Shown here: one piece after another, positions 45,758 through 63,343 of the stretch | Layout of the letters: each line of letters starts with the position of its first letter | Position numbering within the stretch: position 1 is the first letter of the stretch | DNA from: Escherichia phage 348Ecol098PP | DNA: 64,000 nt | Strand: one strand, 5' to 3' | Sequence record: OR062947.1 | Notes under the pieces: generated by a model | Told to the model about the DNA's origin: nothing | What the model saw: only the letters and a program-made list of their open reading frames with translations | Database searches by the model: none | Position numbers and translations under genes: made by a program

Positions 45758-47575
45758 ATGATTAAAAATGAAATTAAGGTATTGTCAGATGTAGAACATA
45801 TTAAGAAACGTAGTGGTATGTATATTGGTTCTTCTGCTAAAGAAGCACATGAGCGTTTTTTGTTTGGTAAATATCAACAAGTTGAATATGTTCCTGGTCT
45901 GGTTAAATTAATCGATGAGATTATTGACAACTCGGTTGATGAAGCTATTCGTACATCATTTAAGTTTGCAAATAAAATTGATGTGCAAATTAAAAATAAT
46001 CAAGTTTCGGTGGAAGATAACGGACGTGGTATTCCTCAAGGTTTAGTTACCGACCAAACAGGTGAACAAATTCCTGGGCCTGTAGCAGCCTGGACTATTC
46101 CAAAGGCCGGTGGTAACTTTGGTGATGACTCTGAACGCAAGACTGGTGGTATGAACGGCGTCGGGAGTAGTTTAACTAATATCTTCTCTACGTTGTTTAC
46201 AGGCATCACGTCAGATGGCGAAAATGAAATCACTGTTAACTGTTCAAACGGAATGGAAAACAAATCATGGTCTTCTAAGAAATCTAAAGGTAAAGGCACT
46301 AAAGTAATCTTCACTCCTGATTTCACTTCATTTGAAGAGCATAATTTATCTCAAATTTATTTAGATATTACTTTAGACCGACTTCAAACATTGGCAGTCG
46401 TTTATCCTGATATCAAGTTCACATTTAATGGTAAAAAGGTTGATGGTAATTTTAAACGATTTGCTAAACAATTTGGTGAAGATAACATCATTCAAGAAAA
46501 TGATAAAGTCTCTATAGCATTCACAACATCACCAGATGGCTTCCGTCATTTAACTTATGTGAATAACATCCATACTAAAAATGGTGGCCATCATGTTGAA
46601 TGTGTAATGGATGATATCTGCGAACATCTTTTGCCCGGTATTAAAAAGAAATATAAGGGTATTGAAGTCACTAAAGCTCGTGTTAAAGAATGCCTCACAA
46701 TGTTGATGTTTATTAGAGACATGAGCAACATGCGTTTTGATTCTCAGACTAAAGAACGTTTAACGTCAACGTATGGTGATATTCGTAATCATATCCAATT
46801 AGATGCTAAGAAAATTGCTCAGGCACTTCTTAAAAACGAAGCCTTGATTATGCCTATTGTTGAAGCCGCATTAGCTCGTAAATTGGCGGCAGAAAAGGCT
46901 GCAGAAACTAAAGCAGCTAAAAAGGCAACTAAAGCTAAGGTTCATAAACATATTAAAGCTAACCAATGTGGTAAAGATGCAGATACGACATTGTTCTTAA
47001 CAGAAGGTGATTCTGCAATTGGTTATCTCATTGATGTTCGTGACCGTGAACTACACGGCGGATTCCCATTACGTGGTAAGGTGATGAATAGCTGGGGTAT
47101 GTCATATGCTGATATGATGAAGAACAAAGAGCTCTTTGATATCTGTGCTATCACGGGTCTTATTCTTGGTGAAAAGGCAGAGAATACGAACTATCGTAAT
47201 ATTGCAATTATGACCGATGCCGATCATGACGGTCTTGGAAGTATCTATCCGGCTTTGCTTGCTTTCTTTAGTAATTGGCCTGAATTGTTTGAACAAGGAC
47301 GTATTCGCTTTGTTAAAACACCTGTAATTATTGCACAAATTGGCAAAGCTCAAAAATGGTTTTATACTGTAGCTGAGTATGAAGAAGTTAAAGATACACT
47401 GCCTAAGCATAGTATTCGATACATCAAGGGATTAGGCTCCCTTGAAAAGTCAGAATATCGTGAAATGATTCAGAACCCTGTGTACGACGTAGTTAAACTT
47501 CCTGAAAATTGGAAAGAACTCTTTGAAATGTTGATGGGTGATGATTCAGAACTTCGTAAAGAATGGATGTCCTAA
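45758..47575 (+). CDS. 39: DNA topoisomerase II large subunit (GyrB-like), single 605-aa ORF corresponding to fused T4 39+60
   Basis: GHKL ATPase N-terminus; TOPRIM region in the same ORF; no interruption. Confidence 0.92.
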   Translation: MIKNEIKVLSDVEHIKKRSGMYIGSSAKEAHERFLFGKYQQVEYVPGLVKLIDEIIDNSVDEAIRTSFKFANKIDVQIKNNQVSVEDNGRGIPQGLVTDQTGEQIPGPVAAWTIPKAGGNFGDDSERKTGGMNGVGSSLTNIFSTLFTGITSDGENEITVNCSNGMENKSWSSKKSKGKGTKVIFTPDFTSFEEHNLSQIYLDITLDRLQTLAVVYPDIKFTFNGKKVDGNFKRFAKQFGEDNIIQENDKVSIAFTTSPDGFRHLTYVNNIHTKNGGHHVECVMDDICEHLLPGIKKKYKGIEVTKARVKECLTMLMFIRDMSNMRFDSQTKERLTSTYGDIRNHIQLDAKKIAQALLKNEALIMPIVEAALARKLAAEKAAETKAAKKATKAKVHKHIKANQCGKDADTTLFLTEGDSAIGYLIDVRDRELHGGFPLRGKVMNSWGMSYADMMKNKELFDICAITGLILGEKAENTNYRNIAIMTDADHDGLGSIYPALLAFFSNWPELFEQGRIRFVKTPVIIAQIGKAQKWFYTVAEYEEVKDTLPKHSIRYIKGLGSLEKSEYREMIQNPVYDVVKLPENWKELFEMLMGDDSELRKEWMS

Positions 47576-47590
47576 GCTCCTTCGGGAGCT
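47575..47590 (+). terminator. UUCG tetraloop hairpin after gene 39
   Basis: AGCTCC-TTCG-GGAGCT. Confidence 0.4.
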
Positions 47591-47617
47591 TCATTTTAAT
47601 TTTAATAAGGCTTAATT

Positions 47618-48718
47618 ATGAAAGTTATGTTTATCCCATCTCGTGCAGTCCCATTTAACCCAGAACGTGTACAAGGTGGTCTTGAAGCAGTACATTTAAA
47701 TGTGTTGAAATATCTTGTGTCCATCGGTGCTGATATTGATTATATCGGCTTTGATAATGACACATTTGGTGATTGGAAGGTTAATCATCATCCTGTTGGT
47801 CATCTGACTAAATTCAGTCTAGGTATGAGTTATACTATGGCTCGTAAGATTGTTGAACTGGCCGGCATCCATGAATACGATTTTGTTGTTACTATGGAAC
47901 CGACTAAACTAACCGTTCAGGCAATTAAAGACGCAGGTCTCTCTAAAGTTCATAAGAATTTTATGGCAACACCATTTGAACCTGTATCTCGTGGCATTGT
48001 TCAAATTTGGGACCAGACTATTCAAATTCATAAGAATGGCGGTAAGAGTTATGCTCCTACTAAAGCCTTCCGTGAATTTGAACGCAAATATTGTTATATG
48101 ACTTCAGGTCTGACTGACAAAATCGATTATGATTATTGGCGAGCAAATCCGTTGTTTGAAGCCGAAGATTATCCGGTTATTTGTTTGAATGAGAAACCTG
48201 AAGTTCTTCCGGCGACGGATCTGATTATTAGTGCACAACGTTATGACACTAAAATGCGTCGTACTGATGTTGCTCTTGAAGCGATTAAAGCACTAGGCGA
48301 AAATGGTGCAGGATACTGTCCAAGCAAATGGGCGCCACCAGCTAAATATCCTGTTATTATCGATGCTCCACACAGTGAAATCATGGAACGTCTTAAAACA
48401 GCTAAAGCACTTATTAATACGTGTCCTGACACAGGTACGGTAGAGAATAGTTCTATTGAAGCCATCTCTAAAGGTGTCCCTGTAATCCAGTTAGTTTTTA
48501 AGGATTATCCTCATGCGACATTCGAATACGACCCAGATACTGTGCGTGTAGAAATTGATTCCTCTACTCCTAAGAAAGAAGTAGTTGCGCTTTACACAAA
48601 AGCTGTATTAGAATTCACTGACACATACGAAGCTCGAGTTAAACGTGCTGAAGCAGTATGGAAGAAGTATAACCGAGATGCAGTTGTTGCGATGTGGGAT
48701 AAAATCTTCACAGCGTAA
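47618..48718 (+). CDS. GT-B-fold glycosyltransferase (GT4-like); candidate DNA hmC sugar transferase
   Basis: N-terminal MKVMFIPSRAVPFNPERVQGGLEAVHLNVLKYL and C-terminal TGTVENSSIEAISKGVPVI resemble GT4 signatures. Confidence 0.6.
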   Translation: MKVMFIPSRAVPFNPERVQGGLEAVHLNVLKYLVSIGADIDYIGFDNDTFGDWKVNHHPVGHLTKFSLGMSYTMARKIVELAGIHEYDFVVTMEPTKLTVQAIKDAGLSKVHKNFMATPFEPVSRGIVQIWDQTIQIHKNGGKSYAPTKAFREFERKYCYMTSGLTDKIDYDYWRANPLFEAEDYPVICLNEKPEVLPATDLIISAQRYDTKMRRTDVALEAIKALGENGAGYCPSKWAPPAKYPVIIDAPHSEIMERLKTAKALINTCPDTGTVENSSIEAISKGVPVIQLVFKDYPHATFEYDPDTVRVEIDSSTPKKEVVALYTKAVLEFTDTYEARVKRAEAVWKKYNRDAVVAMWDKIFTA

Positions 48719-48810
48719 ATCCTGAATAGCCTGAGGCACTATTACACATAAGATGATAGATTATATGGTCTTTAGTAATAGTGCCCTAGGAATCTACTGA
48801 AGAGAATATT

Positions 48811-49011
48811 ATGAGAACATATAACGTGGACTTGGAACTTTTTGATAAAGCGGTGCTCCGGGAATTCCGGCTTATCCAAAGATTTTTTGATATCGAATCA
48901 GCAGAGTCCTTTAAAGAACGCTTTAAAGAAATTCGATATAAAATACAAACCGATACAGCTACTAAAGAAGAACTTCTCGAAGTAGCAGAAATTTTTAAAC
49001 GTAACTTGTGA
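48811..49011 (+). CDS. hypothetical protein (rIIA.1 position)
   Basis: ORF track; GAAGAGAATATT RBS. Confidence 0.55.
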   Translation: MRTYNVDLELFDKAVLREFRLIQRFFDIESAESFKERFKEIRYKIQTDTATKEELLEVAEIFKRNL

Positions 49012-49023
49012 TGAGAGAAAAAT

Positions 49024-51237
49024 ATGATTATTGAAACGGCTAAAGAAACGATTATTGGTTCAGGCGGTAAGAGCACAGCATTCACTATTCAAGGCAATAG
49101 CAAAGTTTATAAGATTTTGTCTAATGACCTTTATACAAACAAAGAATTGGCTTGTGTACGTGAATTAATCACAAACTGTATCGATGGACAAATTCTTAAC
49201 GGTTGCACTGATAAGTTTATTGTTCAGGCTCCAGGTCGTTTAGACCCACGTTTTGTAGTTCGAGACTTTGGTCCTGGTATGAGTGATTTCACCATTCGAG
49301 GTAATGACGAAGAGCCAGGAATCTATAACTCATATTTTGCTTCAACTAAAACATCGAGTAATGATTTCATTGGTGGATTCGGACTCGGCTCTAAAGCTCC
49401 ACTAGCATATACCGATACGTTTAACCTTACGTCTTATCACAACGGTGAAGTTCGTGGTTACGTAATCTACCAAGATGACACAGGTCCACAAATTAAGCCA
49501 ACCTTTGTAGATAAGATGGGTCCTGATGACCGTACGGGTGTAGAAGTAGTTGTACCGGTTAACCCAGAAGATTTTGAAAAGTTCGCATCTGAAATTGCAT
49601 ATGTTATGCGTCCTCTAGGTGATATTGCAGAAGTTCGCGGTGTTAAAGATATTAAATACTTTCCTGAATTTGACGATGTATATTTGGCCAAGGAAGCTCC
49701 ATGGGGTGAACGTGGTAATATCATGGCCGTTTATGGTGGTATTGTATATCCAATCGGAAGTGTTATTAAAGAACAAACATGGATGATGACACGATGCACT
49801 ACAGCTTATATTAAATTCCCAATGGGTGAACTAGATGTTGCTCCGTCTCGCGAAGCATTGTCATTTGATAAACGTACAGTAGCAAATATCCATAAACGCG
49901 TTGCAGAAATCGATGCTAAATTGTTCGCTGAAGATTCTAAGAAATGGATTGATTGTAAATACCCACGACATGTGTTCCGCGAAATTGATTCTCTTGGCTA
50001 TACCGCTCGTAAATACATGGAAAAGGCCGGGTCTAATATTGAATCACTGAAATACTCTAAAGAACAACTAACTTATTCTGAGTTGTACAAACGTTTTAAA
50101 ATGGGACCTGAGTGGTGTAATCTTGGTGTCGTATACGATATCGTTGAATCCCCTCGTCTTCGTCGTATTCGTGAAAGTGGTAGCTCATCATCAACCATTT
50201 CAATTAACAGCCTGATTGGCATTAACATTAAAAACGTTGAAATTGTTATTGACGATGTTAAGGGACGCGTTCCATTAATGCGAGCTCTTAATTCAATTGA
50301 AATGTCTAAAGACGAGGTTAAATTATCCGGTAAAGTTCCACGCGGTTTTGGTAAAAGCGTACTATTCGTTGACCCTACAGACGAAGATGCAATGAAACTT
50401 CTGGAACGCCTTAAAGTTATCTTTGATGGCGACAACATTAACATATACAAGACTTCAGAGCTTTTACAAATCGTTAAGCCATGGATTGAAGTCAGGAAAC
50501 GGACTAATGAGCCTCGTCCTAAATCCCCGAGTGCTCATCGATTCTTTAAGAATGAAAACGATGTTTGGGTATCAGAAGACCTCTTTATTCCGGCAAGTGA
50601 AGCAGATGAAATCCAAGGTTATGCTATAGTTCGTAATCGTTCTAATGCTGAATGTCTTGACGCAGATAAAGGTTGGTTGAACTATGACTCCAATTTCTTG
50701 ACCCGTATTGCTGATTTGTCAGGTATTAAAGAGTTCACTGTAGTTCGTCCACAGATTGCTAAGAAAGTTCGTAAACTTGGTGAAGTAGAATGCTTGTTCG
50801 AAAAATCAATTAATGACTATATTACGCTAATTGATAAAGTGGATTATGATGAGTATGTATCACCAAGTCGTAGAGCACAGCCTTATTTGAATCATATTAC
50901 TCGTAACGAAGAGCTTAACTTCCTTAGTAAGTATTTTAGCTCTAAGAACAAAGAAATCAGTAAAGACTTTGCAAAACTCTCAACAGTAAATAATCGTTGG
51001 GGATGGAATCGATTCGCAGGTGCTACTAATACAGACCTGAATAAGAAGTTAGAATTGTGTGCTAAAATTTTCGATAAGCTTAAAGATAATGCTTACGATA
51101 ATGATGATAAAATGGTTATTGAATTCGAAACCAATTATCATATTGTGTCAGAATACATGGGACGACGTGGTACTCTTTCCAAAGAACAGGTCGCTCAAAT
51201 CGTTAAATTCGTGAAGGCCGTGGAAGCGGCCAAATAA
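49024..51237 (+). CDS. rIIA: rIIA (membrane-associated GHKL ATPase-like protector from prophage-induced early lysis)
   Basis: 737 aa; N-terminal GHKL motifs (ELITNCIDG, GGFGLGSKAP); synteny with rIIB. Confidence 0.92.
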   Translation: MIIETAKETIIGSGGKSTAFTIQGNSKVYKILSNDLYTNKELACVRELITNCIDGQILNGCTDKFIVQAPGRLDPRFVVRDFGPGMSDFTIRGNDEEPGIYNSYFASTKTSSNDFIGGFGLGSKAPLAYTDTFNLTSYHNGEVRGYVIYQDDTGPQIKPTFVDKMGPDDRTGVEVVVPVNPEDFEKFASEIAYVMRPLGDIAEVRGVKDIKYFPEFDDVYLAKEAPWGERGNIMAVYGGIVYPIGSVIKEQTWMMTRCTTAYIKFPMGELDVAPSREALSFDKRTVANIHKRVAEIDAKLFAEDSKKWIDCKYPRHVFREIDSLGYTARKYMEKAGSNIESLKYSKEQLTYSELYKRFKMGPEWCNLGVVYDIVESPRLRRIRESGSSSSTISINSLIGINIKNVEIVIDDVKGRVPLMRALNSIEMSKDEVKLSGKVPRGFGKSVLFVDPTDEDAMKLLERLKVIFDGDNINIYKTSELLQIVKPWIEVRKRTNEPRPKSPSAHRFFKNENDVWVSEDLFIPASEADEIQGYAIVRNRSNAECLDADKGWLNYDSNFLTRIADLSGIKEFTVVRPQIAKKVRKLGEVECLFEKSINDYITLIDKVDYDEYVSPSRRAQPYLNHITRNEELNFLSKYFSSKNKEISKDFAKLSTVNNRWGWNRFAGATNTDLNKKLELCAKIFDKLKDNAYDNDDKMVIEFETNYHIVSEYMGRRGTLSKEQVAQIVKFVKAVEAAK

Positions 51238-51246
51238 GGAAACATT

Positions 51247-52194
51247 ATGTACAATATTAAATGCTTGTCCCAAGAAGAACAGTTAGAAGCTTATGGCCTG
51301 GTTGAATCAGGCAAATGGACTCGTAAAGAAATTGCCGATTACTTCGACATTTCAACAGATACTCTTCGTAAGATTGTTAAGAATTTTAAAGCAGAAGGCG
51401 TTGTCCCTGAAGCAAACGATGCCTCTTATGTAATCGAAGAAGTTCCAGAAAATGATGAACCTATTATCGGCGGACATCGTCCTGAAATCGTATGGAACGC
51501 GTCATCTAAATTTATTTCAATTATTGAAGGACGCGTAGCATACAATGCGACTCCATCAAGTCATGCAAATTTTGAAGAAATTAAAGCTAATCTGGTCGCA
51601 GGAAACCTTAATAAAGCTGTCGAACTTATTAACATCAAGAAAGCTATTAGTAAGTTTGTTGACGGTAATGTTGTTATTGAAGGTGGTAGTTTATTTTATC
51701 AAGGTATAGAGATTCGTTCTGGTCTGGTTAATCGTATTATTGATTCTATGGAAAAAGGCGAAGACTTTAAATTCTATCTACCGTTCCTTGAAAACCTGTT
51801 AGAAAACCCAAGCGAAAAAGCTGTACAACGTTTATTCGACTTCTTGGTTGCAAATGATATTGAAATCACTGAAGATGGGCATTTCTACGCGTGGAAAGTA
51901 GTTCGTAAAGATTATTTAGATTGCTATAGCGGTACATTTGATAACTCACCAGGTAAAGTTGTTTCAATGCCTCGTACTCGTGTTAACGATGATGATACAC
52001 AAACCTGCTCCCGTGGTCTACATGTTTGCGCTAAATCTTATATTCGCCACTTTGGTTCAAGCTCAGATAAAGTTGTGAAAGTTAAAGTTCATCCACGTGA
52101 TGTTGTATCCATCCCGGTTGACTATGGTGATGCTAAGATGCGCACATGTCGTTATGAAGTAATTTCAGACGTTACTGAATTGTTTGCAGAATAA
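51247..52194 (+). CDS. rIIB: rIIB
   Basis: 315 aa; immediately downstream of rIIA; followed by terminator. Confidence 0.9.
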   Translation: MYNIKCLSQEEQLEAYGLVESGKWTRKEIADYFDISTDTLRKIVKNFKAEGVVPEANDASYVIEEVPENDEPIIGGHRPEIVWNASSKFISIIEGRVAYNATPSSHANFEEIKANLVAGNLNKAVELINIKKAISKFVDGNVVIEGGSLFYQGIEIRSGLVNRIIDSMEKGEDFKFYLPFLENLLENPSEKAVQRLFDFLVANDIEITEDGHFYAWKVVRKDYLDCYSGTFDNSPGKVVSMPRTRVNDDDTQTCSRGLHVCAKSYIRHFGSSSDKVVKVKVHPRDVVSIPVDYGDAKMRTCRYEVISDVTELFAE

Positions 52195-52199
52195 TAATT

Positions 52200-52221
52200 G
52201 GGGACTTCGGTCCCCTTTTTT
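52200..52221 (+). terminator. rho-independent terminator (UUCG hairpin + T6)
   Basis: GGGGAC-TTCG-GTCCCC-TTTTTT. Confidence 0.65.
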
Positions 52222-52235
52222 CTTTAGGGGTAATT

Positions 52236-52523
52236 ATGATTCATCCATTTGACGTATCAGAATCCAAAATTGCTAATCTTCGTGGTCATCATAAGTGTAA
52301 ATCAGTTTATTGTGCTAAATTGGTAAAACATCCTGGCGATGCACACTACGGCTGGTTAGAATGCGACGAAGTTGTTATTGAAATTCCGCCTGTAGATGCA
52401 GAATATCTTGAAGAAGGTGACCGCATTTATTTTGGCGAACTACACATCAGAGGTATCTATGGTAAAGACGAACTTGGGGCTGTTGAGGCTGAAGAATCTT
52501 CCGACATTTATCCTGTCGAATGA
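52236..52523 (+). CDS. hypothetical protein
   Basis: ORF track; AGGGGT RBS. Confidence 0.6.
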   Translation: MIHPFDVSESKIANLRGHHKCKSVYCAKLVKHPGDAHYGWLECDEVVIEIPPVDAEYLEEGDRIYFGELHIRGIYGKDELGAVEAEESSDIYPVE

Positions 52524-52539
52524 GTTTTTGACTAGTGAA

Positions 52540-53016
52540 ATGAAGGTGAAGATTGCTGACACTGCTCGGTATTCCCTGAGCCAAAATCCTGGCCAAAACA
52601 AAGAAGATGTAGTTCGACGTTGTAAGGTTGCGGTCTTTGCAGAGTATGTAGTAGCAAATTGGCTAGACGGATATGTTAATAAAGGTATTGAAGATGTAGA
52701 AGACCCGTACACGTATGCATGGGACGTGTTAGCTCATCCTAAATACTGCGGGTTGCGTGTAGAAGTCAAGACACACCAGATAGATTCTAAATGGATTTCG
52801 GTTACCACAGGATACAGCGGTGATTATCCAGGTGGTAATGGAATCAATATAGGGCCCTTCTTGAACCATCGAGTCGCAGATTGCATTATTATATTAGATG
52901 TCAAAGAAACCTCACCTGACGTCTTCTCTTATTCTATAAAGTTCGTGGGAGACCATGAAGACCTAAAGAAAATCGTCCGCAAGAGCAACTACAACGGGTG
53001 GTATCTTCAACTTTAA
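52540..53016 (+). CDS. hypothetical protein (start uncertain; T4 denB region by synteny, not verified)
   Basis: first ATG after upstream stop, in ORF-track frame 52396..53016. Confidence 0.5.
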   Translation: MKVKIADTARYSLSQNPGQNKEDVVRRCKVAVFAEYVVANWLDGYVNKGIEDVEDPYTYAWDVLAHPKYCGLRVEVKTHQIDSKWISVTTGYSGDYPGGNGINIGPFLNHRVADCIIILDVKETSPDVFSYSIKFVGDHEDLKKIVRKSNYNGWYLQL

Positions 53017-53028
53017 TTTCATAAAAGT

Positions 53029-53059
53029 GTTTACAACTAAGTAGGACTATGATATAGTA
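53029..53059 (+). promoter_or_regulatory. early-type promoter
   Basis: GTTTAC-N17-ATATAGT. Confidence 0.45.
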
Positions 53060-53084
53060 GTCCTATCTAAAAGAGGATAACATC

Positions 53085-53348
53085 ATGAAATTTAAATTTT
53101 TCTACGCAAAACATAAAGTAACAGGCGAATTTGTTTCAATGTACAACACTGCAGATGACGAAGGGATGATTTATACCCATTTGGGTCTATCTCATTGGGA
53201 CTCAGACGTGCCTTATATGTCATCTGAAGCCGAAATAACTCGTCTGGTTAATGGACATATGAACGACCATTTTAGTGTTATTCTTTCTAAAGACCTTAAA
53301 GAGGTTATCAACAAAGGATATATGGAACTCGCGGAAGTTGAGATATGA
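53085..53348 (+). CDS. hypothetical protein
   Basis: ORF track; AAGAGGATAA RBS. Confidence 0.65.
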   Translation: MKFKFFYAKHKVTGEFVSMYNTADDEGMIYTHLGLSHWDSDVPYMSSEAEITRLVNGHMNDHFSVILSKDLKEVINKGYMELAEVEI

Positions 53349-53431
53349 GCTCTAAAATGTGGATCGGAATATGGTTGCTTAGTATCCCTATGATTTGTAT
53401 AGTATTTTCAATTGTATTGAGGTACTTATGA
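53345..53431 (+). CDS. small hydrophobic peptide (28 aa)
   Basis: manual translation MSSKMWIGIWLLSIPMICIVFSIVLRYL; ATGA coupling. Confidence 0.4.
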   Translation: MSSKMWIGIWLLSIPMICIVFSIVLRYL

Positions 53432-53538
53432 AAAATGCACTTATTATTGTACTAAGAACAATTTGTGATACGGGTTTTTACATCGCATGTTCGTTCACTG
53501 GATCATGGTTGGCTTTAACATATTTTAATGTAATTTAA
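53428..53538 (+). CDS. small hydrophobic peptide (36 aa)
   Basis: manual translation MKNALIIVLRTICDTGFYIACSFTGSWLALTYFNVI; ATGA coupling. Confidence 0.4.
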   Translation: MKNALIIVLRTICDTGFYIACSFTGSWLALTYFNVI

Positions 53539-53540
53539 TT

Positions 53541-53570
53541 GTTTACAACAAGGTAGGATTATGGTATAGT
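53541..53570 (+). promoter_or_regulatory. early-type promoter
   Basis: GTTTAC-N18-TATAGT. Confidence 0.45.
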
Positions 53571-53598
53571 AGTCCTACTGAAACATGAGGAACACAAA

Positions 53599-53799
53599 AT
53601 GGCTAAGCTTTTTAAAGATGTTGAAATTGGTGAAAAATTTGTCCTGAATAATGGTCAGCAGCTTATTCGTGTAGCTTCTATCGCCGGACAAACTCATAAC
53701 TGTATCGCCCCAACGTGTTGGACTCGATTCTTTATTGAAGATGACACTGAATGTTTAACTGTTGAAGAGCTTTTTGAACGTTCTGATATAGCCGAATAA
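53599..53799 (+). CDS. hypothetical protein
   Basis: ORF track; GAGGAACA RBS. Confidence 0.6.
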   Translation: MAKLFKDVEIGEKFVLNNGQQLIRVASIAGQTHNCIAPTCWTRFFIEDDTECLTVEELFERSDIAE

Positions 53800-53801
53800 A
53801 A

Positions 53802-53831
53802 TTGTACAAACTCTTGAGAGCAGAGTATAAT
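53802..53831 (+). promoter_or_regulatory. early-type promoter with hairpin-forming spacer (copy 2 of 34-bp element at 8957-8990)
   Basis: TTGTAC-N18-TATAAT; identical ACAAACTCTTGAGAGCAGAGTATAATGCTCTCAT. Confidence 0.45.
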
Positions 53832-53875
53832 GCTCTCATGGATTACAAAAACATTAATCAATTGAGGAAATTAGC

Positions 53876-54322
53876 ATGTCCAAATATTTAACTCGTAAAG
53901 ACCTTCTGGCAGTTGGCGGTGAAGTTGTTGCAGTAGTTCGTAATGGCGAATACGGTTCTGAAGTTTCTAAAGAGTTTCGTTCTCGTGAAGGTTTTTACTT
54001 CTTTGTTAAAGGTTCATCTGACTGGCGTCAAGTTGCAGCACGATTCTTTGTAGGACGTCAACGTTCTAAACAAGGGTTGGATGCAATTCTTTCTCACATT
54101 CGTCAAGGCCGTTCGCAACTAGCCCGTACTATGGGCACTAACAATATTGAATATGATGTAATCTTTGTTGCAGCTAAGAACATGAAACCCCTGACTACTG
54201 GTTATGGTAAAGGACAATTGGCTCTGGCATTCACTCGCAATCATACATCAGAATATCAAACACTCACTGAAATGAACCGTCTTCTGGCAGATAATTTCAA
54301 ATTCGTTCTGCAGAGTTACTAA
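53876..54322 (+). CDS. ndd: nucleoid disruption protein Ndd
   Basis: FYVGNQRSKQG..A.LSHIRQ.RSQLART...[41 protein letters not shown] matches T4 Ndd. Confidence 0.88.
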
Positions 54323-54329
54323 TTTATAC

Positions 54330-54352
54330 GGGCCTATTAAGTTAGGCCTTTA
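54330..54352 (+). terminator. hairpin + T-rich tract after ndd
   Basis: GGGCCTA-TTAAGT-TAGGCC-TTTAATTTATTTTT. Confidence 0.45.
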
Positions 54353-54374
54353 ATTTATTTTTGAGGTAATTAAA

Positions 54375-54524
54375 ATGGTAGCATGGATTATTGCATTGCT
54401 GTGTTGGTCGTTTTTATTCGTTAACACTTTAGTTACAGGCGAAACAACAGTATTTCAACAGGCTGTGTCACAAGGTACCTTAGCGGTCTTAGCTCTTCTT
54501 AACGTATTAAAAGGCGAGCAATGA
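54375..54524 (+). CDS. small membrane protein (49 aa)
   Basis: manual translation MVAWIIALLCWSFLFVNTLV...; GAGG RBS. Confidence 0.45.
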   Translation: MVAWIIALLCWSFLFVNTLVTGETTVFQQAVSQGTLAVLALLNVLKGEQ

Positions 54525-54661
54525 TTAAGAAAATCTTAGCAGGAGCCTTCGGGCTCTTGTTTTTGCTTACGGTTCTGTACTACGGTGTGATGTTTGGGCT
54601 AATCCAAGTAGTGCTTTTCATTTCAGATGTTATAATGGTTATTCGTTCATTAATATGGTGA
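54521..54661 (+). CDS. small membrane protein (46 aa)
   Basis: manual translation MIKKILAGAFGLLFLLTVLYYGVMFGLIQVVLF...; ATGA coupling. Confidence 0.45.
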   Translation: MIKKILAGAFGLLFLLTVLYYGVMFGLIQVVLFISDVIMVIRSLIW

Positions 54662-54665
54662 AAAT

Positions 54666-55991
54666 ATGCAATTGAATTCTCGTAATCTAAAAAGTATTAT
54701 TGATAACGAAGCCTTAGCATATGCGATGTACACCGTTGAAAACCGTGCAATCCCAAACATGATTGATGGATTTAAGCCGGTTCAACGTTTTGTGGTTCAT
54801 CGTGCGTTAGATTTGGCTCGTGGTAATAAAGAAAAATTTCATAAACTTGCGTCAATTGCAGGAGGTGTTGCAGATTTAGGTTATCATCATGGCGAATCTT
54901 CTGCACAAGATGCAGGTGCATTGATGGCTAACACATGGAACAACAACTATCCGTTGTTAGATGGCCAAGGCAACTTTGGTTCTAGAACAGTCCAAAAAGC
55001 TGCAGCATCTCGTTATATTTTTGCTCGTGTAAGTAAAAATTTCTATAACGTATATAAAGATACTGAATATGCTCCAGCTCATGAAGATAAAGAACACATT
55101 CCACCAAAATTCTATCTTCCTATTATTCCGACAGTTCTTTTGAATGGTGTCTCTGGTATTGCAACCGGTTACGCAACAAATATTCTGCCTCATAGTTTTA
55201 AATCAGTCAAAAAGGCTGTATTACAAGCTCTTCAAGGTAAAAATGTCACTAAGCCAAAAGTTGAATTCCCGGAATTCCGTGGTGAAGTACATGAAGTTGA
55301 TGGGCGTTATGAGATTCACGGAACATATAAGTTCACATCTCGCACTCAAATGCAGATAACTGAAATCCCATATAAATTCGACCGTGAAACGTATGTGAGT
55401 AAGGTTCTTGACCCGTTGGAAGACAAAGGTCTAATCTCATGGGAAGATGATTGTGGTGAACACGGCTTTGGGTTTAAGGTGAAGTTCCGTAAAGAGTACT
55501 CGCTTCCTGATGATGAAGAGCTACGTCATGAAAAAATCATGAAAGATTTTAGTCTCATCGAACGTCGTTCACAAAACATCACAGTGATTAATGAAAAGGG
55601 TAAATTAGCAGTCTATGATAACGTAGTGGACTTAATCAAAGATTTTGTTGAAGTCCGTAAGACTTACGTTCAGAAACGTATTGACAACAAAATCCTTGAA
55701 TCTGAAAAAGCATTTAAACTGGCTTTTGCTAAGGCACACTTCATCAAAAAAGTTATTACAGGTGAAATTGTGATTCAGGGCAAGACCCGTAAAGCTTTGA
55801 CTGAAGAGCTAACACAAATCGAAATGTATAAAGAACATGTCGATAAACTGGTAGGTCTTAACATCTTCCATATCACTTCCGACGAAGCACGTAAACTAGC
55901 AGAAGAAGCTAAAGCTAAGAAAGAAGAAAATGAGTATTGGAAGTCTACTGATGTGGTAACTGAGTATGTTAAAGATTTGGAGGCTCTATGA
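54666..55991 (+). CDS. 52: DNA topoisomerase II medium subunit gp52 (GyrA-like)
   Basis: 441 aa; N-terminal NEALAYAMYTVENRAIPNMIDGFKPVQR. Confidence 0.92.
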   Translation: MQLNSRNLKSIIDNEALAYAMYTVENRAIPNMIDGFKPVQRFVVHRALDLARGNKEKFHKLASIAGGVADLGYHHGESSAQDAGALMANTWNNNYPLLDGQGNFGSRTVQKAAASRYIFARVSKNFYNVYKDTEYAPAHEDKEHIPPKFYLPIIPTVLLNGVSGIATGYATNILPHSFKSVKKAVLQALQGKNVTKPKVEFPEFRGEVHEVDGRYEIHGTYKFTSRTQMQITEIPYKFDRETYVSKVLDPLEDKGLISWEDDCGEHGFGFKVKFRKEYSLPDDEELRHEKIMKDFSLIERRSQNITVINEKGKLAVYDNVVDLIKDFVEVRKTYVQKRIDNKILESEKAFKLAFAKAHFIKKVITGEIVIQGKTRKALTEELTQIEMYKEHVDKLVGLNIFHITSDEARKLAEEAKAKKEENEYWKSTDVVTEYVKDLEAL

Positions 55992-56092
55992 GCCTTGGAG
56001 TCGAGTTCTTGTTACTATGTATCTTTGCTGTTATTCTAGGCCTGGCGACAGGCTTAGCTATAGGTTTAATAGCAGCCCACTTTAAAAAGTAA
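55988..56092 (+). CDS. small membrane peptide (34 aa)
   Basis: manual translation MSLGVEFLLLCIFAVILGLATGLAIGLIAAHFKK; ATGA coupling to 52. Confidence 0.4.
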   Translation: MSLGVEFLLLCIFAVILGLATGLAIGLIAAHFKK

Positions 56093-56113
56093 GGAACCTT
56101 CGGGTTCCTTTTT
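56093..56113 (+). terminator. rho-independent terminator (UUCG hairpin + T5)
   Basis: GGAACC-TTCG-GGTTCC-TTTTT. Confidence 0.65.
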
Positions 56114-56134
56114 GTGCATTTTTCTCACAAAACA

Positions 56135-56164
56135 GTTTACATGTGCTTCAAACATGATATTATA
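56135..56164 (+). promoter_or_regulatory. early-type promoter upstream of motA
   Basis: GTTTAC-N17-TATTAT. Confidence 0.5.
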
Positions 56165-56202
56165 GACCTATCAAAACAAAACAACCGAATTGGAGAAATA
56201 AA

Positions 56203-56835
56203 ATGTCTAAAGTTGCTTACATCATCAAAGCTTCCGAAAACGCTCTTAATGAAAAAACTGCTGCAATAATGGTTTACATCATTAAGAACAACTTCACCAC
56301 TGCTGCCAATGTCCGTGAAGCTCTGGAAGCGGAATACAATGCATCGGTTGTTAACTCTAACATTGGTGTATTGATTAAGAAAGGTTTAGTCGAAAAATCT
56401 GGTGATGGACTTATAGCAACAGGCGAAGCAATGGATATTATCCAAAAAGCTGCAGACCTCTTTGCCCAAGAAAATGCTCCAGAACTTCTTCAGAAACGTA
56501 ACACTAGAAAAGCACGTGGAGTTACTCCTGAAATGCATGAATTAGCAAACTTTGTTTTTGAAAATATTAAAGATAAAGTTGAAGTTAAAGAAATCGGTGA
56601 AAACCGTAGTAACTTGGAAGTTCGATTTGCAAAACGAGTTCTAGGTATTCGTCAGATCGAAATTCGTCGAGATGGTTCTCTTAGAATCTTTGCATACAAC
56701 ATGTCAGAAACTGAATCAAAGCTGTTTACTTCTCTTGAAAATGATGTTAAGATTAAGATCGGTGGTAAATATACTTACATTGACTTCCCTAATGTGTCCA
56801 AAGAAATCATTACCCTTGTAACTAACGTACTGTGA
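56203..56835 (+). CDS. motA: middle transcription activator MotA
   Basis: MSKV.YIIKAS...VNSNIGVLIKKGLVEKSGDGLI.TGEA.DII..AA.L.AQENAPELL.KR.TRKAR matches T4 MotA. Confidence 0.9.
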   Translation: MSKVAYIIKASENALNEKTAAIMVYIIKNNFTTAANVREALEAEYNASVVNSNIGVLIKKGLVEKSGDGLIATGEAMDIIQKAADLFAQENAPELLQKRNTRKARGVTPEMHELANFVFENIKDKVEVKEIGENRSNLEVRFAKRVLGIRQIEIRRDGSLRIFAYNMSETESKLFTSLENDVKIKIGGKYTYIDFPNVSKEIITLVTNVL

Positions 56836-56845
56836 GGAATACATA

Positions 56846-57175
56846 ATGAATAAGCTGAATATTATTAACGAACTTCGTAAATGTGCAGAACCTACTCAGG
56901 AAGGATGGGATATTTGGTACCACGGGGCTTATTTAGGGACAATTGTAAAGATTAAAGCAGGCCAATATATGGTTATTCGTGAAAATAATGACGCACCATT
57001 TGGCCTTCGTAAAAACTACATGGCAGCGATCAGTTCATTTGTTGATGCCGCTTACGAAATCTATAAAGAAGATTATAAAGAATATCAGCAGTCACAACCG
57101 GTTATTCGTTCGATCGGTGTAAATAAACAAGCACAAAAATCTATTTGGCAACGTATTAAGGAATGGTTTAAATGA
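56846..57175 (+). CDS. hypothetical protein
   Basis: ORF track; GAGGAATA RBS. Confidence 0.65.
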
Positions 57176-57633
57176 AATCATTTAAAGAACGTTTAGAGCT
57201 ATTAGATTTGGCCTTGTCTCGTGAGACTCCTGAAAGTCTAGCAGAAAAATTCCAGTCCTACGGTTATAATTATTCTGCTGATGATGTAATGAATGAAGTT
57301 CCTGAAATCTGTTGGCAAACGTGCTATTGGAATAATGACCAAAAAGTTCAACGTGTTATAGTATGTGCAGCTAATAGGTTTAAATTGAAGAGTGGTGGAA
57401 CTCTGGTTATTCCTGGAGTTCGTCATTACTCTAAAGATATGGCTGAAGTACTTGATATAGTTGGTCCTCAATTAGTCTCGCAACAAGTTTGTGGCGACGA
57501 CCAAGGCTTTATTGACCAATACTCTAATTACTGGACTCGTGAAGAAGCAATGATTATTGCAACGTATGCTGGACAGGTACGTATTGAACGTGGCGGAAGC
57601 GAGAAAGAACTTTATTCAGAGGACCTTTATTAA
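57172..57633 (+). CDS. hypothetical protein
   Basis: ORF track; ATGA coupling. Confidence 0.65.
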
Positions 57634-57914
57634 TGAATATTAAACAACTCCAGAAAGATGCTATTGAATCACGTATCCAAGATATCAAACGTCTTAATCA
57701 TATGATGGAAGAAAACTATGGTATGTATGCTAATCAGCCTGGTTGGGACGCTTTAGACCATCCTTATTTGGTTAATTTATGTAAAGGTGATACGTTAGCA
57801 ATTATTCGTGATGGGTTAAAACCTTTCTTGCGTGACATGTATATTAAAATGAACGAAGAAATTATTAGCTCGTTGCAATATCAATTAAGGAAATTAGATG
57901 ATGAGAATAATTGA
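57633..57914 (+). CDS. hypothetical protein
   Basis: ORF track; TAATG coupling. Confidence 0.6.
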   Translation: MNIKQLQKDAIESRIQDIKRLNHMMEENYGMYANQPGWDALDHPYLVNLCKGDTLAIIRDGLKPFLRDMYIKMNEEIISSLQYQLRKLDDENN

Positions 57915-58116
57915 TTCTAAAGTAGATTATTTTAATTCTGTTAATGATAAGAATAAAGCTTTAATTCGCCACTTTATTACTGAGATGGGATATACAGACT
58001 CTAAAGATTTGAAAGAGCACATTATCGAATGTTCTGTGGCTAAAAAGTTTTCTTTTACCGATAAATGTTTAAATGAGGTTATAAATCATTATGAACAATC
58101 TTGTAGCAAAACATGA
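57898..58116 (+). CDS. hypothetical protein
   Basis: ORF track. Confidence 0.5.
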   Translation: MMRIIDSKVDYFNSVNDKNKALIRHFITEMGYTDSKDLKEHIIECSVAKKFSFTDKCLNEVINHYEQSCSKT

Positions 58117-59638: not shown

Positions 59639-60190
59639 TTACTTAAAGATATTTATAATTCGTTTAACAAGTGATTTGCTTTCAAGGTCAGGGAATTTAG
59701 GGAATTCGCCGCCAAGATGTTCATGTTTTTCTAAAAGGGCAAAGAATTTTTTGAGCTCTTTAAATTTTCGTTTTTCTTCTCTATTAGCAACCTCTGCATC
59801 AATAAGAGAACTTAAAACGCTGAATAATTTATAGAGTTCATGAATTTTCTTATCACGTTGAACTACGCGTTTATATGCTTCATCTTCCTTCCACCCGTCG
59901 TCGGTCCAAATGTCAAATTCGCCAGGTTCTTCTGTAGTAACATTTTGAAGAGCACCTGGAGTGTCAATAACAATTTTTTGCTTATCATAAGTCCATACTG
60001 TTTTTCCACGATGGTCTTCAACGTATACCCATTCTTGTTCGCGTTCATCAAATACAACAGCATAGCCTTCTTTAGGGTCTAAAGGTTTTTTTGGTGTCGA
60101 ATGAGCCGGAAATCCTACGCCTTTTAATGGTTTATAATTTTCTTCTTTGTAAAATTCTTTTGTATCGAAATAAAAGTGATAAATTTTCAT
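59639..60190 (-). CDS. 38: tail-fibre assembly/adhesin protein gp38 (T4 type, 183 aa)
   Basis: MKIYH.YFDTKEFYKEENYKP.KG.G.PAHST.KKPL.PKEGYAVVFDER...FALLEKHEHLGGEFP matches T4 gp38. Confidence 0.85.
   Translation of the reverse strand: MKIYHFYFDTKEFYKEENYKPLKGVGFPAHSTPKKPLDPKEGYAVVFDEREQEWVYVEDHRGKTVWTYDKQKIVIDTPGALQNVTTEEPGEFDIWTDDGWKEDEAYKRVVQRDKKIHELYKLFSVLSSLIDAEVANREEKRKFKELKKFFALLEKHEHLGGEFPKFPDLESKSLVKRIINIFK
59650..59657 (-). promoter_or_regulatory. late promoter TATAAATA (minus strand) upstream of holin t
   Basis: TATTTATA on + strand = TATAAATA on minus, 21 nt upstream of t start. Confidence 0.55.
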
Positions 60191-60198
60191 ATTCAGAA

Positions 60199-60212
60199 GG
60201 GGCCGAAGCCCC
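60199..60212 (-). terminator. UUCG tetraloop hairpin between genes 37 and 38 (minus-strand transcript)
   Basis: GGGGC-TTCG-GCCCC read on minus strand. Confidence 0.4.
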
Positions 60213-60217
60213 TCTCC

Positions 60218-63200
60218 TTATGCTAAACGAACGATATAGTTAAAAGCAATGTTTTTAACTGTGTTTTCTGTATTACCTGTACTATTTACAGTGATAGTAT
60301 GACCGTGCGAACCAATTGCTACCGAGTGGGTATGAGCACCAATACCTACAGTATGTGTATGGGCACCAATACCTACAGTATGCGCGTGGTTACCTGTGGT
60401 ATTTGTAGTTCCAGACCAAGAGTGCGTATGGTTACCTTCTGTCGATGACTTTGCAATATATTGGCCTATACCAGGCACGATTTTGTCGCTCGTGGCAAAA
60501 GAAAGAACCTGGGTTCCGCTAATTGCAGTAGCTCCATTAGGATATATTCCTGTTGGTTGATTATTAGGACCCCTTGGACCGGTCTGTGAGTGTTGGTGGT
60601 TCCCTGCTGCGCCAGTAGTACCACTAACGCTATGGTTATGGTTACCTGTTGTGTTGCTGGTTTTAGTACCATAATCGAATGATGAGGTGGTTTTAGTACC
60701 ATAATCGAATGATGAGGTGGTTTTAGTACCCAAATCTGTGCTTGATGCACTTGCACTATGGCTATGAGACTTAATACCATCAGCTTCTGTACTTAATACA
60801 GCACGCCCGGATGGTTTACCCTTGATAGTTTGACCACGCATATCAGGCAGAGCGCCGGAAGGATACACCGCAGCTAACTTAGGATACAAGTCAGTATCAA
60901 ACGTCTGGCCTTCCATGATGGCATAACCTTCAGGAGGTGTATCAGTAGGCCAAGGAATCGGAGCACCAATTGGGTAACTCGAGACAATATCCGTCTTAAG
61001 GTTATTTATTGTGGTATTCAAGTTAGCAAAATTACCAGTGCCGCCAGTGATGTTACCATCAGTACCGAATTGAGCATTACCAACTTTTAATGGTTTTGAA
61101 AAAAGAACATCGTCGGTTCTAAATGCAACCCCATGACCTAATGCATTATTATATAAGTTAAGTTCATCTGAACTACCACTCCCATTACCAACGTACCATT
61201 TAACCGTATTAGCTTTTTTACCCTGAATATAAACAGCGTTGGTCAATGAAGCCGAGTTAATAATAAGCGCGGCGTTATTAGCGTTAATTGTGATAGCTTG
61301 CCCTGATGTTGTTCCACTAGTTTCTACTTTAAATCTTCCACCACCGATATCAACATCATGATCCATGGAAACTTTACCAGTACTTAATGTAATATAGAAC
61401 GGACGTAAATTAGAAATACCACCTGATTCACCAGCATTCTGCGGGGTTGGAATAATATAAAGCTTATCTTCAGAACGACGGAAAATAGCACCGTATTCGG
61501 CATTCCAAATTCTTAATGCATCAGCAGTTCCGCCAATTTTAACTTGTCCAGTAATAGAAGAACCACCTTGGACAAACAAACCATTAGACATGGTAACATT
61601 ACCACCAAAAGAACCTGTACCAGAGGCACTTATATTTCCGAGCCCGACAATATGTCCAGTTTCTACAGTACCATTAAATTTAAAGTTAACCGGACCTACT
61701 GTTTGACCTGATGCAGGAGCAGTGCGTTGTGCATAAAAATAATATCCATGCCCGTCAGCTAATTCAAAAACTGTTTCACGAGTACGAGCGCCAGATGCGT
61801 TAAATGAATTACCCCACGCTTTAATAGATACATAACTTTTATTCTGACCTGCACGAGTACCACCAGCCCACAGTATAGTTTTAGTACCATCTACTGCTGT
61901 AGGAGCGTCAAGTTGAATACCATCGGGTCTAGCGCCAGTAAGAACTAATCCGTTATCAAATTTAATTCTTTGTATTGAAGATACTGTTCCGTCCGCTCTA
62001 ATAGCAACGCTATTGGAACCGGTTTTAATATCTAAAATTCCTGGGTCAACAATAAGCCCTTCGGCCATACTAACGGACATACGACCTGTACCACGGAAAT
62101 AGTGATACATTTTAGAATTACTGTTATAACCGATATGAGTTTGTCCATCACCGTTATTATTTCCATCAACATCAGTACGCGCAGTAAACATTGCTTGGTT
62201 GTTATTTGGGTAATCCCAAGTAGTACCAGAATTGCGGCTATAACCGACCATCAATTTCTTAGTGCTGTTAATACCGTTATTCAAAATGGTAGCGGATGAA
62301 ATACCGTTAGCCATGAAATCAATAACACCGTCGCGGACCCATTTAATACCTGTATCGTTATCACCAATGGCAATACCAATAGAAATAGCTGAATCCAAAG
62401 GATAACGTCCATTTGTACCATTATCAGGAAGACCTACTGAAATAGATTTACCTGCAGTAATACGCCCACTAGTATCAAACGCCCATTGGAAAGATTCCGG
62501 ACCTATACCAGTCCACCAAGAAATTTCTTGTGGCTTTCCTGAACGACAATCAGCTATTTCATGGAAAATACTAGAAGTATTCGAAGCCCGCATCTTACGG
62601 AGGTAGTTAAGACCATTTGTATTACGGTCAGAGCCATCTGCCGGTGGATTATAAATCCACATAGGTAAAGAAACCCAATCGTATCCAATGTTAGCATTAG
62701 CTACAAATGTTTTTGTACTAAAATTAATATTTTTAGTAACAATTTCAGGACCGGTGATAATACCATTAGCAGAGTTTATATTGCCTGAAGCAGAAATATT
62801 ACCGGTACGAACTTCAATACTACCAGAATCTACGATGAAATTACCATTTCGATTAAAAGTCCAATATTTCGAATCACCAGCTTCATTAATATAGTGAAAT
62901 TTAAAACTACCTTCGTTTACTAATGTACCAGCAGAAAAAGTACCGTCTTTATAACGCTGCTTAATCAGAGGATGGTATTCTGATACTGAGGTAGCAGAGC
63001 TCAAATCCGTAAAGATAGGAGCTTTATTTAGGTGTTGATTTGCCCACGCGCCATTTCCAGCAGTTTTTGGCAAGAATTCAATATACTTTCCTGCATAAAC
63101 AAACTGGTTTCCATTAAGATTATATGTACCGTTTTGTAAATAATCACCATTTTGAGTTACATTACCGTTAATATCCCCGCCCTTAGCAAAGCCTAGGCTA

Positions 63201-63343
63201 ATAATATTACCGAGGTCATCTTTAGTAAAAAGAGTTCGATCTTTTAAGTTTATCGCTAATTCGCCTTCGGCTAATTGTGCTGCAGTAGGATTAACTCCTG
63301 CCACTTTGCTTCTTTTAAATTGTATCTGTTTTAATGTAGCCAT
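60218..63343 (-). CDS. 37: long tail fibre distal subunit gp37 (receptor-binding), 1041 aa
   Basis: N-terminal [39 protein letters not shown]; C-terminal His-x-His repeats; synteny 36-37-38-t. Confidence 0.9.
60336..60389. repeat. 27-bp tandem repeat x2 inside gene 37, encoding HTHTVGIGA His-box repeats
   Basis: GCACCAATACCTACAGTATG repeated at 60336 and 60363. Confidence 0.8.
60661..60730. repeat. 30-bp tandem repeat x2.3 inside gene 37, encoding [10 protein letters not shown] repeats
   Basis: TTTTAGTACCATAATCGAATGATGAGGTGG at 60661 and 60691, partial third copy. Confidence 0.85.

Follow-up and report, generated by a model that had tools for sequence, protein, structure and literature searches.

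A His-x-His repeat and its companion in the T4-type fiber tip of Escherichia phage 348Ecol098PP

The His-x-His repeat of gene 37

We analyzed a 64,000-nucleotide stretch of DNA from Escherichia phage 348Ecol098PP (sequence record OR062947.1; referred to here as the window), in which gene 37, encoding the distal subunit of the long tail fiber, carries near its 3′ end a 27-base-pair (bp) tandem repeat that encodes units with a His-x-His (H-x-H) motif. The repeat very probably represents the proximal part of the return arm of a T4-type gp37 needle with eight H-x-H motifs and paired rungs, a class of needle that appears from the sequence comparisons below to be both widespread and old. As such, the feature is an ordinary form of the known iron-stapled fiber tip and one that has been described before. 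The features of gene 37 on which this assignment is built are as follows.

60218-63343, minus strand: gene 37, long tail fiber distal subunit, 1041 residues plus stop (open reading frame list, Pfam, 2XGF alignment, relatives annotated gp37)
60824-60967, minus strand: Collar domain, residues 793-840 (PF07484; aligned to the T4 collar in 2XGF)
60590-60769, minus strand: outgoing arm of the needle stem, residues 859-918, with H-x-H at 860, 902, and 916 (limits transferred from T4 stem 882-931)
60449-60589, minus strand: head (tip) subdomain, residues 919-965, variable and presumed to be receptor-binding (corresponds to T4 932-959)
60272-60448, minus strand: return arm of the needle stem, residues 966-1024, with H-x-H at 972, 986, 995, 1004, and 1013 (limits transferred from T4 stem 960-1009)
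60221-60271, minus strand: C-terminal strand going back to the collar, residues 1025-1041 (near-invariant in homologues; T4 1010-1026 is domain D10)
60281-60388, minus strand: four 9-residue His units, HAHTVGIGA / HTHTVGIGA / HTHSVAIGS / HGHTITVNS, in frame with gene 37
60388-60362, minus strand: His unit 1, HAHTVGIGA (in-frame translation)
60361-60335, minus strand: His unit 2, HTHTVGIGA (in-frame translation)
60334-60308, minus strand: His unit 3, HTHSVAIGS (in-frame translation)
60307-60281, minus strand: His unit 4, HGHTITVNS (in-frame translation)
60668-60727, minus strand: two perfect 30-bp units encoding the same 10-residue FDYG-type unit twice, residues 873-892 (Tandem Repeats Finder)

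The initial annotation had taken the gene product for a T4-type gp37, which agrees with the domain content and with the structural match. Pfam identified gp37_trimer (PF20744) at residues 692-767 and Collar (PF07484) at residues 793-840, the latter with an E value of 1.5e-11, and a phmmer search against the PDB aligned the last 279 residues of the protein, over their whole length, with the T4 gp37 tip (2XGF) with an E value of 4.5e-89 (query residues 32-310 against residues 2-242 of chain 2xgf_A).

A 27-bp repeat does lie where the initial annotation had placed one, on the minus strand and in the frame of gene 37, but the duplication is not exact as had been claimed, and the 19-residue peptide that was quoted for it does not occur in gp37, whose first unit reads HAH. 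Tandem Repeats Finder reported the repeat at 60311-60382 with a period of 27, 2.7 copies, 84% matches, and a score of 88. His units 1 and 2 (60335-60388) have 23 of 27 nucleotides and 8 of 9 residues in common, and within them a 20-nucleotide perfect core, CATACTGTAGGTATTGGTGC, recurs at 60336-60355 and 60363-60382. A chance origin of this core was excluded, as none of 100 shuffles contained any match even with three mismatches allowed. The His-rich setting that had been described for the repeat is borne out by eight H-x-H motifs in the 1041-residue protein, which start at residues 860, 902, 916, 972, 986, 995, 1004, and 1013.

Comparison with the T4 tip

Ladders of iron-coordinating H-x-H motifs in gp37-type tips have been textbook knowledge since structure 2XGF. 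In T4 gp37 the motifs start at residues 883, 915, 929, 966, 980, 989, and 998; each of the seven has an aligned partner in the window gp37, which has one more and so reaches eight. The His columns were invariant among 34 aligned homologues, and both His residues of every terminal unit were essentially so. According to PMC6957217, the T4 needle (domain D11) is inserted into the collar, and its stem runs out through residues 882-931 and back through residues 960-1009, with the tip at 932-959; the H-x-H pairs coordinate seven iron atoms on the needle axis, and the iron-binding residues His929 and His931 are essential. We carried these limits over to the window through the 2XGF alignment and the H-x-H positions, which gave arms of 60 (outgoing) and 59 (return) residues, compared with 50 and 50 in T4.

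The two tips share the same layout of collar, needle, and head, with seven H-x-H pairs in register (2XGF; Bartual et al. 2010), and from the third His unit to the C-terminus they are near-identical; in both phages a T4-type gp38 chaperone gene follows. The stem of the window gp37 differs from that of T4 by exactly two indels in the 2XGF alignment, an additional 10-residue unit on the outgoing arm and an additional 9-residue His unit on the return arm, so that T4 has three 9-residue His units and seven sites whereas the window has four and eight. The head differs as well, being longer than and unrelated to that of T4 (56 versus 37 residues from the start of the third H-x-H to that of the fourth), and its receptor specificity is therefore presumably different. 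Since all seven T4 iron-binding pairs are conserved in register, the suggestion made earlier for this repeat that its His residues coordinate metal is supported by homology, and the H-x-H pairs of the window would bind metal as they do in the T4 gp37 tip.

By homology to T4, the chain would leave the collar, reach the head domain, and turn back, and three such chains would form a six-stranded needle in which each H-x-H of the three chains faces the axis, one iron ion being held per level. This agrees with the study of phage Bas63 (PMC12609058), which describes a chain that doubles back at the head and three chains forming a six-stranded barrel, and which states that the number of H-x-H motifs may scale with needle length. 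The extra site in the window would then come from one added 9-residue HxHxVGIGA unit on the return arm, and one added 10-residue outgoing unit at the same axial level would keep the arms in register. With n9 defined as the number of terminal 9-residue steps on the return arm, the needle may be pictured as a stack of paired rungs of which this phage would have the three-step version (n9 = 3).

A companion repeat on the outgoing arm

The 10-residue addition on the outgoing arm is itself part of a DNA repeat. Its two perfect 30-bp units lie at 60698-60727 and 60668-60697, and with a partial third copy that extends to 60658 the repeat spans 60658-60730 (Tandem Repeats Finder: period 30, 2.4 copies, 100% match). 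No exact 30-bp match was expected by chance, and a chance origin was excluded. One of the two 10-residue units is the insertion relative to T4 gp37.

Two published T4 stem contacts, G921-F970 and G964-H929 (given in PMC6957217), together with the symmetric limits of the stem, imply an antiparallel register in which i + j is about 1892. In that register the T4 outgoing 10-residue unit (residues 896-905) would face the return unit HTHTVAIGS (residues 989-997). Likewise, the window outgoing units at residues 873-882 and 883-892 would face the return units at residues 1004-1012 and 995-1003, respectively. Taken together, the 10-residue and 9-residue additions have the appearance of a single extra rung, one half on each arm.

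Pairing of the two arms in 184 tips

We assembled tips from 120 homologues, from 150 representatives of clusters at 50% identity, and from 89 phage or viral loci, which together yielded 184 unique complete tips. In these, the spacing of the first two H-x-H motifs, which spans the 10-residue units of the outgoing arm, followed 12 + 10 × n9, with the classes listed below.

n9 = 1: spacing of 22 residues, 1 tip
n9 = 2: spacing of 32 residues, 88 tips
n9 = 3: spacing of 42 residues, 81 tips
n9 = 3: spacing of 41 residues, 3 tips
n9 = 4: spacing of 52 residues, 4 tips
n9 = 5: spacing of 62 residues, 1 tip
n9 = 6: spacing of 73 residues, 1 tip

The outgoing 10-residue count matched the return 9-residue count in 183/184 tips; four apparent exceptions merely have an extra or a missing outgoing H-x-H. 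The only real mismatch is L008, a metagenomic T-even contig (IMGVR_UViG_3300030021_000020, locus 1501-2070) with two outgoing TK..SFDYG units and three return His units, in which the order g37-g38-t (holin) is otherwise intact; the mismatch in register is either tolerated or an error. The distal 14-residue steps were equal on both arms in every tip (0/0 in 75, 1/1 in 108, and 2/2 in one). The total number of H-x-H motifs per tip ranged from 4 to 10, with eight in 46 tips, and the n9 = 3 class to which the window belongs comprised 84 of the 184. Among the extreme needles, P0128 has five proximal 9-residue steps (10 H-x-H in all) and P0222 has six, P0261 has one proximal step only but two 14-residue distal steps per arm, and P0187 is also counted among these classes.

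The head of the window gp37 is 95% identical to that of S143_2 and 78-83% identical to those of other T-even phages, and it aligns poorly with that of T4. In T-even phages this head family is found on n9 = 3 stems, and a 53%-identical head is found on n9 = 2 stems in E. coli prophages. The occurrence of related heads on stems of both classes indicates that the length of the stem varies separately from the type of head.

Age of the repeats and alternative explanations

The window has one return unit more than T4, its His units 1 and 2 contain a perfect core, and the outgoing repeat paired with them is perfect and occurs in this sequence only, all of which would fit a recent duplication of the 27-bp His box, through slippage or unequal crossing-over in the lineage of this phage, with a newly lengthened needle as the result. 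The initial annotation had argued for such a recent expansion from the exactness of the duplication, which did not hold. We consider it very improbable. The four-unit return arm recurs in each of the eight close phages that we examined (S143_2, JM17, 172859UKE1, JK42, slur03, G2469, WFbE185, and ESCO10), and the signature of the units (HAH in the first, HxH in the second, ..VAIGS in the third, and HGH in the fourth) is kept both in these phages and in prophage fibers that are approximately 64% identical. The four differences between His units 1 and 2 fall at the same positions in relatives, and in JM17 both units are identical in DNA to those of the window, so that the pair is older than the split between the two. 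The 6/8 codons common to the two units are within the codon-usage expectation of the region (P = 0.07). A private recent duplication of the His unit was therefore rejected on the orthologous unit signatures, the JM17 identity, and the codon test together, and the extra unit relative to T4 appears to be an old, common allele class that involves no private new event. The likeness of His units 1 and 2 in DNA would then reflect codon bias and strong constraint on VGIGA, with a possible contribution from gene conversion. It is also possible, though we hold the idea only tentatively, that the rung number is old while gene conversion or unequal exchange re-homogenizes neighboring units, so that their near-identity is recent. 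The 30-bp units argue for this, being 30/30 identical within the window and within L007 yet different between those two phages, and having diverged from each other, mostly synonymously, in S143_2, slur03, JK42, and JM17; in the window the two units agree in 10 of 10 codons (P = 1e-4 in the codon-usage test). The Ile codon of the His units points the same way, as it is ATT in both units of the window and of JM17 and ATC in both units of L007. On the other hand, the 27-bp signal is weak, the first three codons of the His units remain unit-specific, and the repeats are short for homologous exchange. Moreover, an exact-pattern scan of viral and metagenome contigs for the private junction of the 30-bp units of the window returned neither a donor nor a single-copy ancestor, and import from an unsampled phage is possible. 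Clear recent homogenization thus seems to be confined to the outgoing 30-bp pair, which is best read as the product of either recent homogenization (gene conversion) or import from an unsampled donor, with no change in the number of rungs.

The added unit might also play no part in iron binding, holding another metal or none and serving as a spacer or as a DNA-level His-box recombination site for head swaps. Conserved adhesin motifs have been reported to mediate recombination (Tetart 1996, 1998, as cited in PMC3157838), and the same head family occurs on n9 = 2 and n9 = 3 stems, as described above. However, the inserted unit follows the flanking units, which bind Fe in T4, in both its HxHxV.IG. 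consensus and its period of exactly 9 residues, its two His positions belong to the essentially invariant set, and a function in recombination would be compatible with metal binding; we regard a role without iron as improbable. An artifact of assembly or sequencing is so improbable as to be negligible: short tandem repeats are liable to mis-assembly in general, with nothing specific to this one, but the repeat is in frame and is matched by a compensating unit on the outgoing arm, and the identical architecture recurs in many independently sequenced phages. A fiber of the T2/S16 type, in which gp37 is capped by a glycine-rich gp38 adhesin of ~260 residues, was rejected given that the downstream gene encodes a 183-residue T4-type chaperone and that gp37 ends in a T4-type needle.

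Several observations weigh against the assignment of the repeat to one arm of a paired, iron-binding T4-type needle. The mismatch in L008 means that strict pairing of the arms may not be obligatory. The register of the rungs is extrapolated from the two published T4 contacts and the domain limits, not taken from coordinates, and the one-residue difference between the arms of the window (60 versus 59) calls for some bulge. Metal binding and trimer geometry rest on homology, and the AlphaFold2 monomer model of residues 763-1041, computed with a 34-sequence alignment, is uninformative for the His residues, with a mean predicted local distance difference test score (pLDDT) of 45.9, a predicted template modeling score (pTM) of 0.16, and a needle nearly without secondary structure; such a poor score is expected of a monomer model because the tip is an interdigitated trimer. 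Finally, Pfam family PF03335 (Phage_fiber) gave no match to the window gp37 at E 0.01 or better. PF03335 matches are precomputed for many of its homologues, which makes this miss probably an effect of the model threshold and no real difference.

Implications of the pairing

Variable H-x-H counts of seven to nine have already been published, and the window, as one more allele, adds little to them. The modest gain lies in the companion repeat and in a pairing that is nearly without exception (183/184 tips for the 10/9 rungs and 184/184 for the 14/14 rungs). An explicit rule for the pairing of the two arms was not found in the literature examined, and the rule follows directly from the known fold. 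It offers a simple sequence-level check on the annotation or assembly of tips, a guide for engineering fiber length in which units are changed on both arms, and a clean natural case of compensating indels in an interdigitated trimer.

A broader reading, which we put forward as conceivable but well short of probable, is that the gp37-type needle is a modular ruler whose length is set by paired rungs of 10-residue FDYG and 9-residue H-x-H units (1 to 6 copies, one iron site each), plus 14-residue rungs (0 to 2). If this were true, the number of rungs would change through two separate, co-selected indels approximately 300 bp apart, intermediates with mismatched arms, of which L008 is an example, would be viable, and homogenization, as in the perfect 30-bp pair of the window, would keep the units prone to recombination. 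Units of that kind would in turn allow needle length to be tuned to the thickness of the host surface layer.

Related fiber tips

Viable tandem duplications in the His-box region of T4 gene 37 were reportedly found among host-range mutants in work ascribed to Tetart et al. 1996, and are said to have involved the variable segment between His boxes and to have altered host range. The units of the window differ from these in being natural, conserved rungs of the stem that lie outside the head.

The closest tips are those of gp37 in the eight close Mosigvirus, Tequatrovirus, and Dhakavirus phages, which have the same spacings between H-x-H motifs (42, 14, 55-56, 14, 9, 9, and 9, followed by a 29-residue tail) and heads of the same family, 78-95% identical to that of the window. 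They differ from the window in the DNA of the tip, which is at most 91% identical, and in their two 30-bp units, which are unlike each other whereas those of the window are identical and private. Seven to nine H-x-H repeats have been described in gp37 of G2469, WFbE185, and others (Korf et al. 2019), and we found the tips of G2469 and WFbE185 to have the architecture of the window. The C-termini of prophage fibers from E. coli and Shigella (P0008, P0010, P0064, and L009) share the collar, the stem repeats, and the C-terminus at 59-69% identity and obey the same 10-residue/9-residue pairing rule; they are distinguished by other N-terminal shafts and heads and by 1 to 6 proximal and 0 to 2 distal 14-residue steps. 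The long and short fiber tips of the Felixounavirus Bas63 (PMC12609058), which we liken to the window by description, have a T4-like collar, needle, head, and H-x-H ladders but six or seven motifs.

Gene 37 and its neighborhood

Downstream of gene 37, the window carries the following features.

59639-60190, minus strand: gene 38, T4-type tail fiber assembly chaperone, 183 residues (68% identity to T4 gp38; Pfam Caudo_TAP)
60195-60217, minus strand: GGAG and, after it, a hairpin (GGGGC-UUCG-GCCCC; folding energy −15.8 kcal/mol, z = −1.85) in the intergenic region that separates the stop codon of gene 37 from the start codon of gene 38

The identity of the window gp38 to T4 gp38 extends over 179 residues (E = 5e-93), and the order of gene 37, gene 38, and the holin gene is that of T4 and of Mosigvirus S143_2. 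The sole Shine-Dalgarno-like sequence before gene 38 is ~24 nucleotides from the AUG, and the intervening hairpin would draw the GGAG nearer to it. T4 gene 38 has a split ribosome-binding site, an arrangement of which the gene 37/gene 38 hairpin of the window is reminiscent; relatives carry a putative terminator annotation at the position of this hairpin.

A weak 12-bp tandem repeat lies inside the shaft region of gp37 (62363-62387; 2.1 copies, score 36). In a comparison of window positions 46000-58000, the rIIA-motA region was 98% identical to phages HY126 and ST0, the latter of which the Mosigvirus S143_2 record mentions in its annotation notes. For the DNA of the gp37 tip (60218-61150), identity to the 219 records found in the phage collection did not exceed 91%. 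The genome is mosaic, and this pattern is the usual one at the locus.

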